DNA of 64,000 bases from sequence record NC_018835.1, one strand, 5' to 3'. Source of the stretch: Escherichia phage NJ01. The position numbers and the translations under genes were made by a program. Positions 350 through 10,172 of the stretch are shown here, in pieces. Within the stretch, counting starts at the first letter, position 1; each line of letters starts with the position of its first letter. The notes under the pieces were generated by a model. It was not told where the DNA came from, made no database searches, and was given only the letters and a program-made list of their open reading frames with translations.

Positions 350-793
350 CTACTTAACCCTTGCCTCTTTGATGGGGTCAATGTATTTCTCAACTCCCCA
401 TTTGTGTTTACTGTCTGCGTAGAAAACATCAGGCGCACACTGACTTGTCTTAGGAAACGCTTGAGGGTCTTTCGTGCTACCCTTAAATTTCTGTTTACCA
501 CGGGTGCGACCATTACAGAAGATTTCTAATTTCTTCTCCTCTTCTGTTTTAGCTCCCCCGCTCTTTAACAAAGAACGTTTATGATCGGCTAACAATAACG
601 CATCAGCACGATGGACGCGATGGCCTACACGTTTTGCCACACTAGAAGGGATATAGGATTCAGCTTCAGCTTTTGCAGCACGACGTTTTAAACTGCGCTT
701 ACTGACGTGATTGGTTGCCTTTGGCTTCTCTTTCTCCAGTTCAGAGATAGAAAAACAACGCCCGCCTTTCATGCTGATTTTTGATTTAGCCAT
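350..793 (-). CDS. hypothetical basic protein (147 aa)
   Basis: ORF track; Lys/Arg-rich; no recognisable motif. Confidence 0.4.
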   Translation of the reverse strand: MAKSKISMKGGRCFSISELEKEKPKATNHVSKRSLKRRAAKAEAESYIPSSVAKRVGHRVHRADALLLADHKRSLLKSGGAKTEEEKKLEIFCNGRTRGKQKFKGSTKDPQAFPKTSQCAPDVFYADSKHKWGVEKYIDPIKEARVK

Positions 794-1619: not shown

Positions 1620-2528
1620 TTATGCTGCCTGACGTGCCGCCATAATCTCAGCTGCCTTGCGCAATACTTCTTCCTCTTCTTCTTTCGCAGCTTGTTCGGT
1701 ACGGGTAGCAACCGTTGAAGAGATACGACCGCGCAGACTTTCTAACTTCTCCTGAATAGCCGCAATAGTCTTTTCCATTTCATCAGCGTATGAATCGAGT
1801 GATTCTAATTCCTTGCTTGATGCGTTCATCAGATAATCGTCTGAGATCGCTACAGTTGAAGCCGTGACTTTCTTGATGAGTGAATCAAAGGACTTTTTAA
1901 CTTTCCCCACGTCTTCACTTAAGGCGATAGTGTTGTCACTGGTAGCGCCATTGCGCTCATCAGCCAATAATTTGGCTTCAATACGGATTGCATTCAATCG
2001 TTCGACCAAAGCGTAAACATCTTGGTTAAAATCTTCCTTGTTTTTCGCCGGGATTTGCAGATGTGCCGCCACGTTGTCATTGCAACCCTTGTAGAAGTTA
2101 GGGTTATCGACTTCAATTTCACGGCCTAAAGCAAAGTTTTCGAAAGCATTTGACCAGCGAGCGCGGTTTTGTTCCATTTTGGCCTTAATTTGCGCTTCTT
2201 TCGCATCTTCTTTCGCTTTCGCTTCACCTTCCAGATTAATCCACTTTTTACGACCGTTTGCCGCATCAGTGTTAAACTTGATGGGAGTTAAGAAAGTAAT
2301 TGCAGTGGCGATCACATCCATATCGCGGAAACGTTCAGTTAACAGAAAATCGACTGCCGACTGCAATACGTCCAGCTTTTTACCGTTACTGCGGAAGTGC
2401 TGCAAGTGCCCTAACAGAAAATTAGAAACATCCTGTTTAATCGCCGCGTTATTGCTGCGGATATTGTTAGCCAGTGCGTTAAAGCCAGATTCTTTTACCA
2501 GATTGAAAATTTTAGCCATGATATTCAC
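1620..2528 (-). CDS. hypothetical protein (302 aa), coiled-coil/acidic C-terminus
   Basis: Long ORF, terminator immediately downstream; no recognisable catalytic motif. Confidence 0.55.
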   Translation of the reverse strand: MNIMAKIFNLVKESGFNALANNIRSNNAAIKQDVSNFLLGHLQHFRSNGKKLDVLQSAVDFLLTERFRDMDVIATAITFLTPIKFNTDAANGRKKWINLEGEAKAKEDAKEAQIKAKMEQNRARWSNAFENFALGREIEVDNPNFYKGCNDNVAAHLQIPAKNKEDFNQDVYALVERLNAIRIEAKLLADERNGATSDNTIALSEDVGKVKKSFDSLIKKVTASTVAISDDYLMNASSKELESLDSYADEMEKTIAAIQEKLESLRGRISSTVATRTEQAAKEEEEEVLRKAAEIMAARQAA

Positions 2529-3750
2529 CTTTCAATTGTAAGGGCACTATTGCCCCCGCTCGCTATGAGCCTTTTAAGCCATTATTGACTTATCAATATC
2601 CACTCAATGTTAAGTAAATATTGATAAGCGGAGCGGTCTTATCAGGAGTTAACCTTGCCGCCCCCTTATCCGTGATGTTTCATCTGGTATCTTTAATTAG
2701 TCGCTATAAACGAAGCCGACCTGATAGCGATGATAAATCATCACAATAAGGCAAGTGTGTCCGACACTATTTAATTACATTGCTGTAACCGTCGGCAATA
2801 TCGTTTATTATACTTTCGCTCTCGCCTATCCTTTTATATCAGCTCTCAATCGCTAGTCATCGCCCACTATGGGATACTATTGCGAAAGAGTCACTAACCG
2901 CCTAATATTCCGGCGTTTTATATCTTTCGGCAAGTTTACTACATAAACCGACTATGTACTTTCATCATAAGACGAATCTCAAGCCGTTCGCATCGTAAAC
3001 GTTCACACTAAACCTTATTGTTAAATAGCAATTTGCTACCCTTTAACCACCCCCCGCCGCTCTCAATTGAGCGTTAATTCGTCGGACTTGTCTGCCCTGA
3101 TTAGTTTCTTTCACTGTAGCACCGTGTTAGCGATGGCCGCCGCTACCCTTAACCGTGGGCGATTAGTTTAAGCCGTTGCGTGTACTCAATGAATCCGCTT
3201 ATCAGTGGTGACGTTTCCAGTTAAGGGATTGTAAAACTGTTTACCCTGATGGTTTAGGGAGTTTTACGCCGTTTTATCTGGTATGCTTTCCGATGGTTAT
3301 TATCTTCCAGCATATTCAACCGATATATGGGGACGTTTAAATTATTAAAGAGCGGTAAATCTGTCAGCGTGCTTTCTCACGCTACGCAACTGTAAGCCGT
3401 TGTTTCGCTTTTCACTTAAGCGGTGATTTGCCTAGTGAGTACGCTCATTATGGACCATGATGTTTTCGCTGTCAACCGCTTTTTTAATCTTTTTCGTCGT
3501 TCCCGCTATTGGGAGGATATATCAATCAGCTTTATTTGATTGAAGATCAAGCGATGAGGCTAAAATCATGATTCACATTGTTAAAGAGCGGTTACTACAT
3601 TCACAGCTTAACACATCGTGTTAGCTTGTCAAACTCTTTTTATCATCTTCTTTTATTCTTTTCCCTTATCTCGCGTGAATCTATGCGAAAGGGCAAGATG
3701 ATAAATTTTTAAAGAGCGGGGATGTTTCACGTCATCGCTGACTTATGCTT

Positions 3751-3779
3751 ACTATATATCAGGCTGTTTTCGGTGTCTA
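3751..3779 (-). promoter_or_regulatory. sigma70-like promoter (minus strand)
   Basis: Minus strand reads TAGACA-17 nt-TATAGT (-35 at 3779-3774, -10 at 3756-3751). Confidence 0.4.
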
Positions 3780-3971
3780 TACTCTTTTTAAGAATATTTT
3801 CACTTTCTAGCCTGATTTTTAAAGAGCGTTTAAAACTGTATGGCTCCCATAACACCATTTGATAATCAGTTAACCTATGACTATTCAGGGGCATGGTATC
3901 CGGCTGCCTCCGTCTGACTTGCTTCACTCACTAGGGAGTTACTTGAGCGGTCATCTTGTCTTTCTAAGCTC

Positions 3972-3999
3972 ATTATAGGTTAGGCTTTCCAGCTGTCAA
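3972..3999 (-). promoter_or_regulatory. near-consensus sigma70 promoter (minus strand)
   Basis: Minus strand reads TTGACA-16 nt-TATAAT (-35 at 3999-3994, -10 at 3977-3972); A/T-rich UP-like region upstream. Confidence 0.5.
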
Positions 4000-4264
4000 A
4001 TACTTTTTCAAGTATTTTTCACTTTCCAGCCTGATTTTTAAAGAGCGCGCGGCGTATGTTTTACATCGTACCCGATGAAAATCAGTATACGCCAGCTTTC
4101 AGGAAGTGCAATAGGGTAAAGCAAATTATTTTAAACTTTTTCACTATAGGAAGGTAAAAGAGCGGGCGCACGTGATACAACACAGAAAACGGCTTGTAAA
4201 GCGATATTTAGCGGCCTAAAACGCACCACAGCGAGCTAAAAGGGAGTAAGGAATACAATCACCT

Positions 4265-4295
4265 TAGAAAAGAAAAAAGCCTCATGGCGAGGCTT
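4265..4295 (-). terminator. rho-independent terminator (minus strand)
   Basis: Hairpin AAGCCTC-ATGGC-GAGGCTT with A-run on + strand (U-run on minus transcript), downstream of gene ending at 4371. Confidence 0.45.
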
Positions 4296-4370
4296 TCAGG
4301 AGGTTTTAAAGCATTAGATAGATTGTGACCATAGGAATGACCACGGCACAATAAAGGAGAAAGATTAAGC

Positions 4371-4736
4371 CTATGGATTTACACATTGACCATTACCGGA
4401 CTCAATTTCATTCATGGACTCATCAAAGAGCGTCAACGATGAGCGCATCAAGTGATTGACCGTGATTTGTTTACCAGTGATTTCATTTACCAGTAAAATA
4501 GTTTTACTATCTGATTGCACATGATCAAAATCATTTACATGCAAAATAATAACTTTAGGTGACTTTTTACCGGTTTCATAGTTTTCTATAAGGTAGGTAC
4601 ATTGCAAGCCGTCAACCGTAGCAGGGGAAAACGTTGCAGCCTTAACGCTACCCATAGCCGATAACAGCACACCTAACAGAAGAATGACCAGAAAAAAGCC
4701 TACAACCGTTTTAACGACGAATCTAATAAACCACAT
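4371..4736 (-). CDS. membrane-anchored or secreted protein (121 aa)
   Basis: N-terminal hydrophobic segment VVGFFLVILLLGVLLSAMG. Confidence 0.5.
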   Translation of the reverse strand: MWFIRFVVKTVVGFFLVILLLGVLLSAMGSVKAATFSPATVDGLQCTYLIENYETGKKSPKVIILHVNDFDHVQSDSKTILLVNEITGKQITVNHLMRSSLTLFDESMNEIESGNGQCVNP

Positions 4737-4941: not shown

Positions 4942-5193
4942 TCACCATTTTGGCAGATCGCAATCCAGAAGACCAGCAAGCGACAAACCACCGTCAATGT
5001 AAATTGATCGGAAGTCATCGCGATTTATATCAATGCGCACCAATTGAAGCCATTTTTTTGCCTCGTTAAAACTCATGGAACAAAAGGCAACGGTAGGCAC
5101 TGTAACCTGACCATCTCGCATATTAAATAGAATGACGGTATCACCAATAAAACAAGAAAAGCCGTTGGATAATTTAACTTCTTTGATAGCCAT
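4942..5193 (-). CDS. hypothetical protein (83 aa)
   Basis: ORF track; compact spacing with neighbours. Confidence 0.45.
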   Translation of the reverse strand: MAIKEVKLSNGFSCFIGDTVILFNMRDGQVTVPTVAFCSMSFNEAKKWLQLVRIDINRDDFRSIYIDGGLSLAGLLDCDLPKW

Positions 5194-5711: not shown

Positions 5712-6688
5712 TTGTGAAGCCTCTTTGATATGTATCAGATAAGGATATAATAGGACACGCTTTCTTACATTGCAACCATCTTTCTAACTTTCTTTCTTTC
5801 TACTAAAAGTAGCGCCATTAAACTTACTAGTCCTATCTTTCGGGCTTAACTTGCTATCAGCGAACGACTCGACTACTTCACAAACGATCAGAACAAGTAA
5901 AGGAAACACCACAACCATGACCATCATTATTAAGATTATCATTTCTATTACTCCAATCACTCAATCAATAGGCTTCAATTTACTACTACTTAACAAGGAA
6001 GACAAGCGACCACGGGTAAACTGTTTCTACTATATAGGACGGGGCATACAACAACCGCATAACAGACCACGGGGAAACATAGCAAGATAATGCGGTAATA
6101 ATATACCACTTAAATAATTGTATAACTCAAACATCAAAAACCGTTCGTACTACGTACTCACGCACGCTGAAAAAGAAAGGAATAAACATCAATAAAAACA
6201 ATCATTCTTAAAAGAATTATTAAAAGAAATATAATCATCCACTTAATTAATACATACATCATTATTGCACTCATAACAATCACTATTGAAACTATTTACA
6301 TTCAAACTATGGGGAGCTGCGACTGTTACATGACGGTACGACGCTTTCGCTGTCGGTATTATATCGCCTTAAACTATTGGTACAGTGAAGACTAGCCTTT
6401 CTCCTACTCTTTAAAGGGGAACTAAATAAACGGGTAGGTAATGAATAGGATGGTATACACGGGGAAAGAATAACGGGGAGTAGGCACGGGGAAAGGTTGG
6501 AACGTTGATAGGGATGTAAAGGCATTGCCAATAACCATTTTTTATTTGAGGACTCCCCCTTTTTAGGAAACACGCTGCGAGCGCCTAGCCCCACTCGGTC
6601 AAATCAGAATTTTAAACAGATATATACATCTTTATTTTTTATAAATCTGTATTTTAAACTCTTATATATAAGCTTAAGAGAGGACTTA

Positions 6689-8630: not shown

Positions 8631-10172
8631 ATGTCATTAGATAAACAAATTTATGAAGCTCTAACTGGTAACAACCTTAGTGTGGATGAAAAGAAAGCAC
8701 TATTGAATATGTTGAAAGAGCGTGACCAATGGAGGAAGTATAATAGGATTTTGTCTTTCAAGGCGTATGACTTCCAAAAGAAATTTTATGCAGCAGGATT
8801 GAAGCATCGCTTTAGATTCTTGTGTGCAGCGAACCGTGTTGGTAAATCTTACAGCGAGGCATACGAGTTTGCTTGTCATGTCACAGGTCGATACCCAACT
8901 TGGTGGACAGGATATAAATTTAAAAGACCTATCTTAGCATGGGCAGTTGGTATTACAGGGGATTCCACAAGGAAAGTATTGCAAAAGGAATTGTTTGGTA
9001 CACCTATCGGAAAGGATACAAATTTATTAGGGACAGGTGTCATTCCTCGTGATGCTATCGTCATTGATACGATAGAACGAGATGGTAACAAACTTCAAAT
9101 CGTACAAATCAAACATCAAAATGAGAGAGGAGAGTTTGACGGTTTAAGTACATTAGAATTCCGTTCAACCCAACAGGGTGAACACACATTGATGGGTGCA
9201 ACAGTTGACTACATTTGGTTAGACGAAGAAGATCCATACGAGTCTATGGCTATATTCGCACAGTGCGTCACACGTACACTCACAACTAAAGGTCTAGTTA
9301 CAATTACAGCTACACCAGAGAACGGTTTAACTGAACTGGTAGATAAATTTATGAAAGGCGAAGGGGATGAGAGCACAGGTTCTCTCTATTTCCAGAACGC
9401 TTCTTGGTGGGATGCTCATGCAGACCTAGGTGGGCATATCACTGACCAAGATATAAAAGATATGACTGAAGGTATTCCAGCGTGGCAATTAGAGATGCGT
9501 TCAAAAGGTATGCCATTGTTAGGAAGTGGTTTGATATATGATGTATCGGATGACACAATTAAATGTGAACCATTCGAAATTCCTGATACGTGGAAACGTG
9601 TCTGTGCAATTGATATTGGTATTGATCACCCAACTGCTGCTGTTTGGACAGCTTACGACGCAAACACGGATACTATCTATGTTTACGACTCATATAAAGA
9701 AGGTGGCTTTACTCCAGTGTATCATGCTCCAGCTATTAATGGTCGTGGTCAGTGGATTCCTGTCATCCTACCGCATGATGCGGACAATACTGAGAAAGGT
9801 AGTGGTTCATCTGTTGCTCAATTCTATAAGAATGCAGGAGTTAACGTACAGAGTGAGACCTTCTACAACAAAATTGGAATGGATGGTAAAAAGAACTTCT
9901 TTGTAGAACCGGGAATCACAGATATCCGAGAAAGAATGATGAGTGGACGCTTTAAAGTCTTTAACACAGCCGCTAACGCTAAGCTATTCGAAGAGAAAGC
10001 TAGATATCACCGTAAGGTTGGTAAGATTATTAAAGAACATGATGACTTAATGGATGCAATGCGCTATTCAGCGTGTTCTGTTACACATCGTGGTCGCTCT
10101 AAGCATGATGTTAGCTACGGAAGTGCTTCTTTGTATGAGGCAAACGTAAGCAGATGGAATCAGAGCTACTAA
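8631..10172 (+). CDS. terminase large subunit
   Basis: Walker A-like CAANRVGKS, acidic WLDEED motif, size and position upstream of portal. Confidence 0.75.
   Translation: MSLDKQIYEALTGNNLSVDEKKALLNMLKERDQWRKYNRILSFKAYDFQKKFYAAGLKHRFRFLCAANRVGKSYSEAYEFACHVTGRYPTWWTGYKFKRPILAWAVGITGDSTRKVLQKELFGTPIGKDTNLLGTGVIPRDAIVIDTIERDGNKLQIVQIKHQNERGEFDGLSTLEFRSTQQGEHTLMGATVDYIWLDEEDPYESMAIFAQCVTRTLTTKGLVTITATPENGLTELVDKFMKGEGDESTGSLYFQNASWWDAHADLGGHITDQDIKDMTEGIPAWQLEMRSKGMPLLGSGLIYDVSDDTIKCEPFEIPDTWKRVCAIDIGIDHPTAAVWTAYDANTDTIYVYDSYKEGGFTPVYHAPAINGRGQWIPVILPHDADNTEKGSGSSVAQFYKNAGVNVQSETFYNKIGMDGKKNFFVEPGITDIRERMMSGRFKVFNTAANAKLFEEKARYHRKVGKIIKEHDDLMDAMRYSACSVTHRGRSKHDVSYGSASLYEANVSRWNQSY

Follow-up and report, generated by a model that had tools for sequence, protein, structure and literature searches.

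In γ-proteobacteria, boxA is an RNA element with the consensus GYTCTTTAANA that is bound by NusB-S10 (Baniulyte et al. 2017, PMC5725501). In the leader of the Escherichia coli rrnB operon, two tandem strong sigma70 promoters with A/T-rich upstream tracts share one boxA, which by our reading of the sequence lies at about +32 from the P2 start and about +150 from the P1 start; a boxB hairpin stands upstream of it, and long untranslated structured RNA with long-range closing helices lies downstream. The nut sites of phage lambda also place a boxA, in the weaker form CGCTCTTA, in early transcripts just past the early promoters. At rRNA, Nus factors promote RNA folding, which the introduction of one paper describes as now considered their main role there (PMC5725501), and boxA shields the long untranslated transcripts of clustered regularly interspaced short palindromic repeat (CRISPR) arrays from Rho (PMC7665894). 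Here we report that a gene-free stretch of 1851 nucleotides (nt) in Escherichia phage NJ01 (positions 2520-4370 of the sequence analysed) carries five perfect boxA sequences, each 10-140 nt past the start of a predicted promoter, upstream of a large conserved structured RNA. We consider it likely that this stretch is the main early transcription control region of the phage and works like a bacterial rRNA operon leader, with Nus-modified host polymerase crossing an untranslated structured RNA into the early operon. The rrn leader is the closest working analogue of the stretch, which does not itself belong to the rrn family because its product is not rRNA.

All coordinates are those of the window, the whole 64-kb piece of DNA that was analysed (NC_018835.1), and the transcribed strand of the stretch is the minus strand. 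The window is a circularly permuted Kuravirus (phiEco32-like) genome, and the stretch with its flanks shares 80-95% identity with some 96 podoviruses of Escherichia and Shigella from the phiEco32 group, that is, the Gordonclarkvirinae (genera Kuravirus, Suseptimavirus and Nieuwekanaalvirus), whose molecular biology is poorly studied according to the authors of the BASEL collection (PMC11990801). The stretch is the spacer between the homologues of phi32_124 (1620-2519, minus strand), which starts at the ATG at 2519 and not at the GTG at 2528, and phi32_125 (4371-4736, minus strand), and is a little longer than first described. It is present in all relatives; in phiEco32 it measures 1944 bp (72787-74730 of 77554) with nothing annotated, and it is equally unannotated in the curated records of SU10 and the BASEL phages. 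For comparison, 20 phages from the three genera were used, the window's own sequence included, out of the approximately 96 genomes available.

A preliminary description of this DNA, made from the letters alone, had reported six copies of a short motif in the region. The motif core, TAAAGAGCG, was found six times in the 64 kb against 0.38 expected, and none of 100 shuffled sequences reached six. Five of these occurrences are in the stretch, at 3346-4047 and on one strand only, and the sixth exact match lies at 559-567 on the opposite strand, within a gene; the sixth copy previously counted in the region (4154-4165, GTAAAAGAGCGG) is degenerate with two mismatches, so that five of the six copies stand as exact. 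As all genes and promoters around the stretch read leftward, the motif has to be read on the minus strand, where it becomes GCTCTTTAANA, in its fuller form CCGCTCTTTAA(A/C/T)AAT. Perfect matches to GYTCTTTAANA number seven in the window against 0.5 expected, and five of them are at 3343-4046, all on the minus strand. Judged by its sequence, the repeated motif is boxA. The two perfect matches outside the spacer, at 560-570 (plus strand) and 10028-10038 (minus strand), are antisense to the local genes and probably due to chance. The boxA copies and the predicted promoters of the stretch, in the direction of transcription, are as follows.

4154..4165, minus strand: degenerate boxA-like copy (CCGCTCTTTTAC), failing the consensus at two positions
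4084..4111, minus strand: P1, weak sigma70-like promoter TTGCAC-16-TATACT, 8/12 hexamer matches by eye, below the scan threshold
4036..4046, minus strand: boxA (GCTCTTTAAAA), about +31 from the P1 start, perfect consensus match
3972..3999, minus strand: P2, consensus sigma70 promoter TTGACA-16-TATAAT, 12/12 in the scan
3817..3827, minus strand: boxA (GCTCTTTAAAA), about +138 from the P2 start, perfect consensus match
3751..3779, minus strand: P3, sigma70 promoter TAGACA-17-TATAGT, 10/12 in the scan
3707..3717, minus strand: boxA (GCTCTTTAAAAATTTATCA), about +27 from the P3 start, perfect consensus match
3605..3632, minus strand: P4, TTGACA-16-TAAGCT, read from the sequence, with a consensus -35 box and a poor -10 box in this phage
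3579..3589, minus strand: boxA (GCTCTTTAACA), about +10 from the P4 start, perfect consensus match
3447..3475, minus strand: P5, the last promoter, TTGACA-17-CATAAT, 11/12 in the scan
3343..3353, minus strand: the last boxA (GCTCTTTAATA), about +87 from the P5 start, perfect consensus match

Comparison with the relatives revealed that this arrangement is conserved. In the 2.5 kb upstream of each phi32_124 homologue, the 20 phages together have 82 consensus matches in the sense orientation and none in the antisense orientation, and a copy number of 3-5 is kept in all relatives examined. The boxA at 3579-3589 is kept in position, at about -1060 to -1070 from the gene start, in 20/20 phages; P5 is kept at about -950, also in 20/20, and the last boxA is fixed at about -830 in the 20 phages, in a block (AGATTTACCGCTCTTTAA.AATTTAAAC) that is invariant save for the 'N' position of the consensus. 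The degenerate copy at 4154-4165 is not conserved in phiEco32 or SU10 and is probably decayed or non-functional.

The likeness to the rrnB leader extends beyond the consensus. The boxA region of E. coli rrnB reads TGCTCTTTAACAATTTATCA, the copy at 3707-3717 reads CGCTCTTTAAAAATTTATCA and its SU7 orthologue CGCTCTTTAACAATTTATCG; the copy at 3707-3717 shares 18 of 19 positions with GCTCTTTAACAATTTATCA of the rrnB boxA region, the match running on into ATTTATCA. GCTCTTTAA.AAT was invariant in a four-way alignment that set the phage units beside the leaders of rrnB P2 and T7 A3. The distance from the promoters is also comparable (+10 to +138 in the phage), and here too hairpins stand upstream of the last boxA and a long untranslated structured RNA with long-range closing helices downstream of it. 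The phage differs from rrn in having 3-5 promoter/boxA units and not two promoters with a single shared boxA, in lacking a recognised boxC, in an RNA that runs directly into a protein-coding operon, and in a product that is not rRNA (no Rfam match, and no match in 5,426 E. coli genomes).

The same motif had earlier been taken for a shared regulator or UP-like element, which would make it a DNA site, bound by a regulator or acting as an extended UP/activator element for the promoter downstream. Two copies were said to be embedded in a longer homologous unit, and indeed a 45-nt unit, 84% identical between its two occurrences, is present at 3784-3828 and 4003-4047. For these two units the reported spacing of about 45 bp between repeat and promoter holds as well: the motif ends 37-38 nt upstream of the -35 box, where an activator could fit, and A-rich tracts lie between motif and -35. 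The spacing fails for the others, the next -35 being 74 and 104 nt away (against 37 and 38 nt), and the last copy has no downstream promoter at all. An UP element is an A/T-rich block at about -40 to -60; the motif contains GAGCG and lies 37-104 nt upstream of the -35, well beyond UP positions, and the A-rich UP-like tracts that adjoin the -35 boxes are separate from it. A DNA site would also leave unexplained why an asymmetric motif keeps one orientation throughout the 20 phages, why it matches an RNA-element consensus base for base on the transcribed strand, with the 3707 copy extending into the rrnB flank, and why the same element follows, and does not precede, the early promoters of T7 (A3) and Pseudomonas phage MR4. 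We regard a DNA site as decidedly unlikely.

Sigma70 promoters were sought with a threshold of 9/12 hexamer matches or better. Sites at this level are not above chance in the scan (13 versus 14.4), and the three best minus-strand sites are all inside the stretch. The two strong leftward promoters recognised at the outset, P2 and P3, proved to be of consensus grade. The early promoter cluster that they were thought to belong to is borne out and was already in the literature, as the SU10 paper reports three sigma70 promoters between CDS120 and CDS121, that is, in the spacer, 'like phage phiEco32' (PMC4281155). The SU10 counterparts in Table S2 of that paper are 73996 for P3, 73668 for P4 and 73511 for P5; P4 is the same in both phages, P3 deviates only in the second base of its -35 box (TTGACA in SU10), and P5 has four mismatches in the spacer. 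The -35 box of P3 is TTGACA in relatives, and at the position of P4 several of them have TTGACA-16-TAGAAT (11/12). P1 has an AT-rich tract upstream and is conserved in several relatives, and the 22 nt preceding P2 are 82% A+T, forming a UP-like A-rich tract (GAAAAATACTTGAAAAAGTAT). The P2 region (3955-4035, minus strand) resembles T7 A1 (T7 432-512) beyond the hexamers, with AAAAAG(A)GTATTGAC...AAAG(C/T)CTAACCTATA in common, which hints at shared ancestry or at convergence of early promoters in two podovirus groups.

The number of copies raises another explanation, compatible with an rRNA-style leader, namely that the array is a decoy whose boxA copies soak up NusB, S10 and SuhB, starve the host rRNA operons and thus aid host shut-off. 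Several boxA copies behind near-consensus promoters would suit such a decoy, as would the 3-5 copies kept in all relatives when one per transcript should suffice, and phiEco32 reportedly shuts off host transcription. Tandem promoters each need a boxA of their own downstream, which already explains the copy number, and the known shut-off factor is gp79 (PMC12276001). We consider a decoy role unlikely.

Downstream of the last boxA, the minus strand encodes what appears to be one large structured RNA that reaches to the early operon. The features of this part are listed from upstream to downstream.

3365..3423, minus strand: two boxB-like hairpins upstream of the last boxA, from covariation and alignment with rrnB
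2520..3342, minus strand: large structured non-coding leader RNA of about 823 nt, from a consensus fold and the absence of a conserved open reading frame (ORF)
about 3341-3042, minus strand: Domain I of the leader, from the consensus fold
3041-3023, minus strand: hairpin between the domains, from the consensus fold
about 3021-2743, minus strand: Domain II, from the consensus fold
2742-2541, minus strand: 3' hairpins, from the consensus fold
2517..2533, minus strand: start of the early operon, with the ribosome-binding site (AAAGGTG) and ATG of its first gene, the phi32_124 homologue, read from the sequence

The leader is 74-97% identical to the window across the 20 phages, or 84-97% when PAS59 and TH42 are left out. 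This conservation is about equal to that of the adjacent gene overall and well above that of the gene's third codon positions (75-86% identical). RNAalifold applied to the alignment of 20 sequences returned 39 helices with a total of 232 pairs, of which 71 show compensatory changes. Both domains are closed by long-range helices, leaving the ribosome-binding site and ATG downstream unpaired. That ATG is kept in 16 of the 19 relatives in which the anchor reached the gene start, the anchors of the other three being offset. Of 4639 cells in the fold, 99.1% are paired as against 93.7% in shuffled alignments, a value reached by none of 500 shuffles. The 71 compensatory pairs compare with 32 in shuffles (again 0/500 reach the value) and with 6-11 when the partners are slid by 1-3 columns.

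The fold also has a strand. It contains 477 G.U cells against 11 A.C cells, column-shuffle z-scores range from -2.8 to -11 on the sense strand and are weaker on the antisense strand, and the leader of the window folded as a single sequence reaches -246 kcal/mol (z -5.6) versus -210 (z -3.3) for its complement. The excess of G.U over A.C and the stronger sense-strand z-scores indicate that the fold is selected on the minus-strand RNA. Given the slid-partner and shuffle controls and this strand asymmetry, a chance origin of the fold is unlikely. The suggestion that the region might encode non-coding RNAs was thus borne out more strongly than proposed, with an RNA of about 830 nt and a cassette RNA of about 135 nt (see below), both with compensatory changes.

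Of the two hairpins before the last boxA, the one at 3365-3384 (helix 2) comprises 7 pairs, 3 of which show compensatory changes, and the one at 3406-3423 (CCGCTTAAGTGAAAAGCG) can be aligned with boxB of rrnB, CCGCTGAGAAAAAGCGAAGCGG.

Searches for the leader outside the group gave no relative. Rfam returned nothing at the gathering threshold in the window and nothing meaningful at E<=10 in 2300-4600; the best matches, at noise level, had E 0.36-0.55 and 20-22 bits, against gathering scores of 57-100. The known large RNA families considered (GOLLD, ROOL, OLE, HEARO, group I and II introns, RNase P, tmRNA, 6S and others) were rejected, as their Rfam models score at noise. BLAST of the leader against 5,426 E. 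coli genomes gave no match, and an nhmmer profile run against the right end of phage 7-11, MR4, Citrobacter phage CVT22, T7 and rrnB found only the rrnB boxA, at E 0.59. A pattern scan of IMG/VR with a conserved leader block hit only 4 kuravirus contigs, the same 4 that a protein-anchored IMG/VR search retrieved. By BLAST, profile and pattern searches the leader RNA is thus seen only in the Gordonclarkvirinae. Its hairpin loops contain no diagnostic repeated motif.

The large structured RNAs of phages and prophages (GOLLD, ROOL) and other 'ornate' large bacterial RNAs (OLE, raiA) resemble the leader in their size of several hundred nt, multi-domain covarying structure, association with phages and unknown biochemical function; the leader differs from them in matching no Rfam model, in its restriction to the Gordonclarkvirinae and in being a 5' leader behind boxA. 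As a working guess, we take the leader to be an early RNA that is abundant and processed and doubles as the 5' leader of the early operon.

Alternatively, the region could code for several very small proteins, its conservation reflecting coding; tiny proteins had been suggested for it before, and 8-11 tiny coding sequences are automatically annotated here in some records (pEC-N1203-2Af.1, CHD5UKE1). Across the 20 phages, no ORF that begins with ATG behind a ribosome-binding site has been conserved. Within the conserved 830 nt or so, the ORFs that stay intact in most of the phages are all short (15-23 codons), begin with GTG or TTG and are without a Shine-Dalgarno sequence; the substitutions pair across helices and do not show codon spacing, and the curators of phiEco32, SU10 and the BASEL phages annotated nothing. 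The earlier statement that the stretch holds no ORF of at least 60 amino acids (aa) is right in that there is no credible gene, and wrong in that the ORF listing contains one 66-aa GTG ORF at 3727-3927 (minus strand). This ORF was rejected as a gene: it spans a structured RNA cassette, a boxA and a promoter, and the stretch that hosts it is absent from most relatives. SU7 and PAS59 do have a genuine 66-aa ORF with a ribosome-binding site in their cassette, which counts in favour of small proteins; the ORF at 3727-3927 was rejected as its homologue, their translations having no evident resemblance. Coding for small proteins as the explanation of the region is extremely improbable.

The upstream half of the stretch differs from the leader in being variable. 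Distant relatives (SU7, Bas86, TH43, PAS59) share only 2529-3742 with the window, and between the upstream terminator and the conserved part the inserts vary by phage, each behind a promoter and before a boxA. Two features delimit this part in the window.

4275..4297, minus strand: intrinsic terminator ending the upstream phi32_125-128-like operon, a 10-bp stem (GAAAGCCTCGCCATGAGGCTTTT) followed by a T-run
3830..3965, minus strand: cassette RNA, structured, about 135 nt, between P2 and the next boxA, in a subset of kuraviruses only

A terminator is annotated at the position matching 4275-4297 in the SU10 and SU7 records, and the SU10 paper places one downstream of CDS121 (PMC4281155). The RNA insert of about 135 nt is found in this window, pEC-N1203-2Af.1, IMEP8, 172-1, LAMP and others; phiEco32, SU10 and most other relatives match only the last 30 nt or so (the boxA end) of the cassette query. 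At the cassette position, phiEco32, SU10 and EP335 carry an unrelated insert of about 140 nt, one IMG/VR contig an insert of about 250 nt, and SU7 (3829-4029) and PAS59 the 66-aa gene. The inverted repeat GATTTGTC...GACAAATC closes a further RNA-like insert of about 200 nt in phiEco32, SU10 and EP335. As a whole, the upstream half forms a mosaic of promoter-small RNA-boxA cassettes that can be exchanged.

The window's cassette is 72-75% identical to early-region DNA of MR4 (about 1764-1895; Gajwadongvirus, Autographiviridae) and CVT22 (about 2470-2600; Citrovirus, Zobellviridae), and in MR4 the copy is followed by a boxA, GCTCTTTAACAATCTGG, as in the window. Its consensus fold, from 5 sequences only, has 28 pairs, 14 of them compensatory. 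No Rfam family matches it, and pattern scans of IMG/VR, GTDB genomes and JGI metagenomes returned, besides CVT22 itself, matches in coding DNA that are due to chance; a partial and doubtful relationship was seen for one metagenome contig. An RNA of about 115-135 nt with three hairpins carrying compensatory changes is thus found directly behind an early promoter in three unrelated phage groups. The early region of MR4 has two sense boxA copies and that of CVT22 one, and promoter-proximal boxA may be widespread in virulent phages.

Such a mosaic could also mean that the promoter-boxA units serve in the first place as handles for recombination, comparable to the promoter/stem-loop cassettes of T4-type phages, with regulation secondary. 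Different inserts between the same flanking units, and one cassette common to unrelated phages, are what handles would produce. They do not explain why boxA is exact and fixed in orientation, nor why the last promoter/boxA unit and the 830-nt RNA are invariant and not mosaic. We give this explanation a small but appreciable chance as the main role of the units; it is compatible with a control region of the rrn leader type, since functional repeats can double as crossover points.

More speculatively, the RNA of about 830 nt might be more than a 5' untranslated region and represent a class of its own among the large multi-domain non-coding RNAs, new and phage-borne. It would be produced early and in large amounts by a dedicated rRNA-style system of UP-type promoters, boxB-like hairpins and boxA, and would act in trans, for example as a scaffold, as a decoy for host RNA-binding or defence proteins, or as a catalytic RNA, with the exchangeable cassettes forming a horizontally traded early-RNA toolkit built on the same boxA module. 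We put this forward as possible, though on balance doubtful.

Direct repeats, strong promoters and a conserved structured transcript, all within one long non-coding region, might instead mark a replication origin, the repeats serving as iterons and the transcript as pre-primer or activator, as with ColE1 RNA II or the transcription-activated origins of T7 and lambda. Unlike iterons, the repeats are irregularly spaced (110, 128, 219 and 236 bp); they are short, and no AT-rich unwinding block adjoins them. The cumulative GC-skew minimum falls at about 6000-6600, outside the stretch, where it coincides with the switch from leftward to rightward genes and with the expected genome ends, and the asymmetry of G.U over A.C reflects selection on an RNA fold. 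An origin here is very improbable.

It had further been proposed that the stretch might be a genome-end region, and this was not supported. The last 513 bp of linear phiEco32, including its 193-bp terminal repeat, align to 6039-6586 at 77% identity, and the direct terminal repeat is 193 bp in both phiEco32 and SU10. As the right end of phiEco32 aligns at about 6586, the assembly is circularly permuted and the spacer lies roughly 2.2 kb inside the genome; the physical ends should be at about 6039-6586.

The consensus identity, strand bias, position and conservation of boxA, the absence of conserved ORFs and the conserved RNA structure are directly supported by these data. On the rrn-like model that we favour, host sigma70 polymerase would start leftward at the five promoters, three of them near-consensus and provided with A-rich UP-like tracts. 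The repeated motif being the complement of boxA, a boxA would be present in the nascent RNA 10-140 nt past each start and would bind NusB-S10, on the analogy of the leaders of rrn operons and CRISPR arrays and of the lambda nut sites. Together with NusA, NusG and SuhB, NusB-S10 would make the polymerase processive and Rho-resistant, and the modified complex would tether the 5' end of the RNA to the polymerase and aid co-transcriptional folding. The polymerase so modified would then cross 0.9-1.6 kb of untranslated sequence, made up of exchangeable small structured RNA cassettes and then the conserved multi-domain RNA (about 830 nt), before it enters the early operon. That Nus factors bind here, and that they act in antitermination or as chaperones, is suggested by analogy with those systems, and any role of the large RNA is likewise inferred.

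Several points weigh against this model. The promoters are predictions from consensus matches, three of them also predicted by others. The distance from the P4 start to its boxA (about +10) is unusually short, and the -10 box of P4 is poor in this phage. The hairpins at 3365-3423 are candidate boxB elements by resemblance, and no boxC-like GU-rich block was recognised in the stretch. The leader fold was scored on the same alignment that predicted it, which makes the pairing figures somewhat inflated, and the large RNA may be 'only' a structured 5' untranslated region. In addition, the transcript strand has G in excess of C across 2400-3300 and would be a poor Rho substrate. For such a G-over-C, heavily structured transcript, a folding or processivity role is at least as likely as Rho protection in the leader; the true need may be for help with folding and not for antitermination as such, and Rho protection may be more relevant for the cassettes and for entry into the early operon.

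Among virulent phages, T7 offers a precedent. It too is a podovirus with a row of strong host-type early promoters near a genome end (A1, A2 and A3, upstream of gene 0.3), and it has one perfect boxA (GCTCTTTAACA; GACGCTCTTTAACAATCTGG) at 813-823, which lies ahead of gene 0.3, at a distance of 63 nt from the A3 start. T7 differs in having this single boxA, a leader of about 100 nt before gene 0.3 and no large structured RNA, and its promoters are within 0.8 kb of the end, whereas those of NJ01 are 2.4-3.1 kb inside, as estimated from the end mapping. Our search of the literature on boxA or antitermination in T7 found nothing relevant.

With the nut sites of lambda the stretch has in common a phage-borne boxA just past early promoters. 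It differs from them in having the full rrn-type boxA consensus and in having hairpins upstream of boxA, as in rrn, and not downstream; no N-like protein or N-type boxB was identified in the analysis of the stretch. In CRISPR-array leaders (2020, PMC7665894) and at the non-rRNA boxA targets (PMC5725501), too, boxA stands between the promoter and an untranslated RNA of unusual length, where it keeps the polymerase going. These loci belong to the host and have one boxA each, whereas NJ01 is a virulent phage with repeated boxA and with structured RNA in place of repeats and spacers.

The promoter cluster was thus already predicted in the literature. We came across no earlier description of either the large RNA or the boxA reading: our searches returned no paper linking boxA, Nus factors or antitermination to phiEco32-like phages, although a mention in the primary phiEco32 papers is possible, and no kuravirus transcriptome paper. 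The real surprise is a conserved structured RNA of about 0.83 kb, together with exchangeable small-RNA cassettes, on an rRNA-style promoter/boxA module. If the model is true, the action of Nus factors at boxA, a mechanism known from the host and easily tested, accounts for a fixed 2-kb 'gene desert', and boxA control extends to virulent phages, beyond rRNA, lambdoid phages and CRISPR arrays. The study of the related phage 7-11 states that its antitermination strategy 'remains to be defined'; how host polymerase passes through long untranslated or terminator-containing early regions, the question left there, is perhaps answered by this arrangement. The right-hand 10 kb of 7-11 contain no perfect boxA. 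Gordonclarkvirinae are common coliphages in therapy cocktails and gain a testable regulatory model, and the large RNA, with its strong comparative support for the fold, is suited to structural and functional study. For phage engineering, the region is not a dispensable spacer and is unsuitable as a neutral insertion site.

A scan of the 64-kb window for tRNA and tmRNA genes found none. Pfam and PHROGs searches with seven flanking proteins returned only unknown functions, the phi32_124 homologue being phrog_13018, of unknown function. The 121-aa protein (4371-4736, minus strand) and the 83-aa protein (4942-5193, minus strand) are labelled 'terminase' or 'polymerase' in many records, labels that stem from PHROG names (phrog_13168 and phrog_14176). 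Given the size of both proteins and the lack of a Pfam hit above threshold, the labels are doubtful and look like propagated misannotation. In Bas92, a member of the clade with short genomes (67.7 kb), the phi32_125-128-like genes are missing next to the spacer, and in their place, upstream of the spacer terminator, there is a tandem T-rich repeat of about 27 nt (CAGCGTTTCTTTTATTCTTTTCTTTTT).

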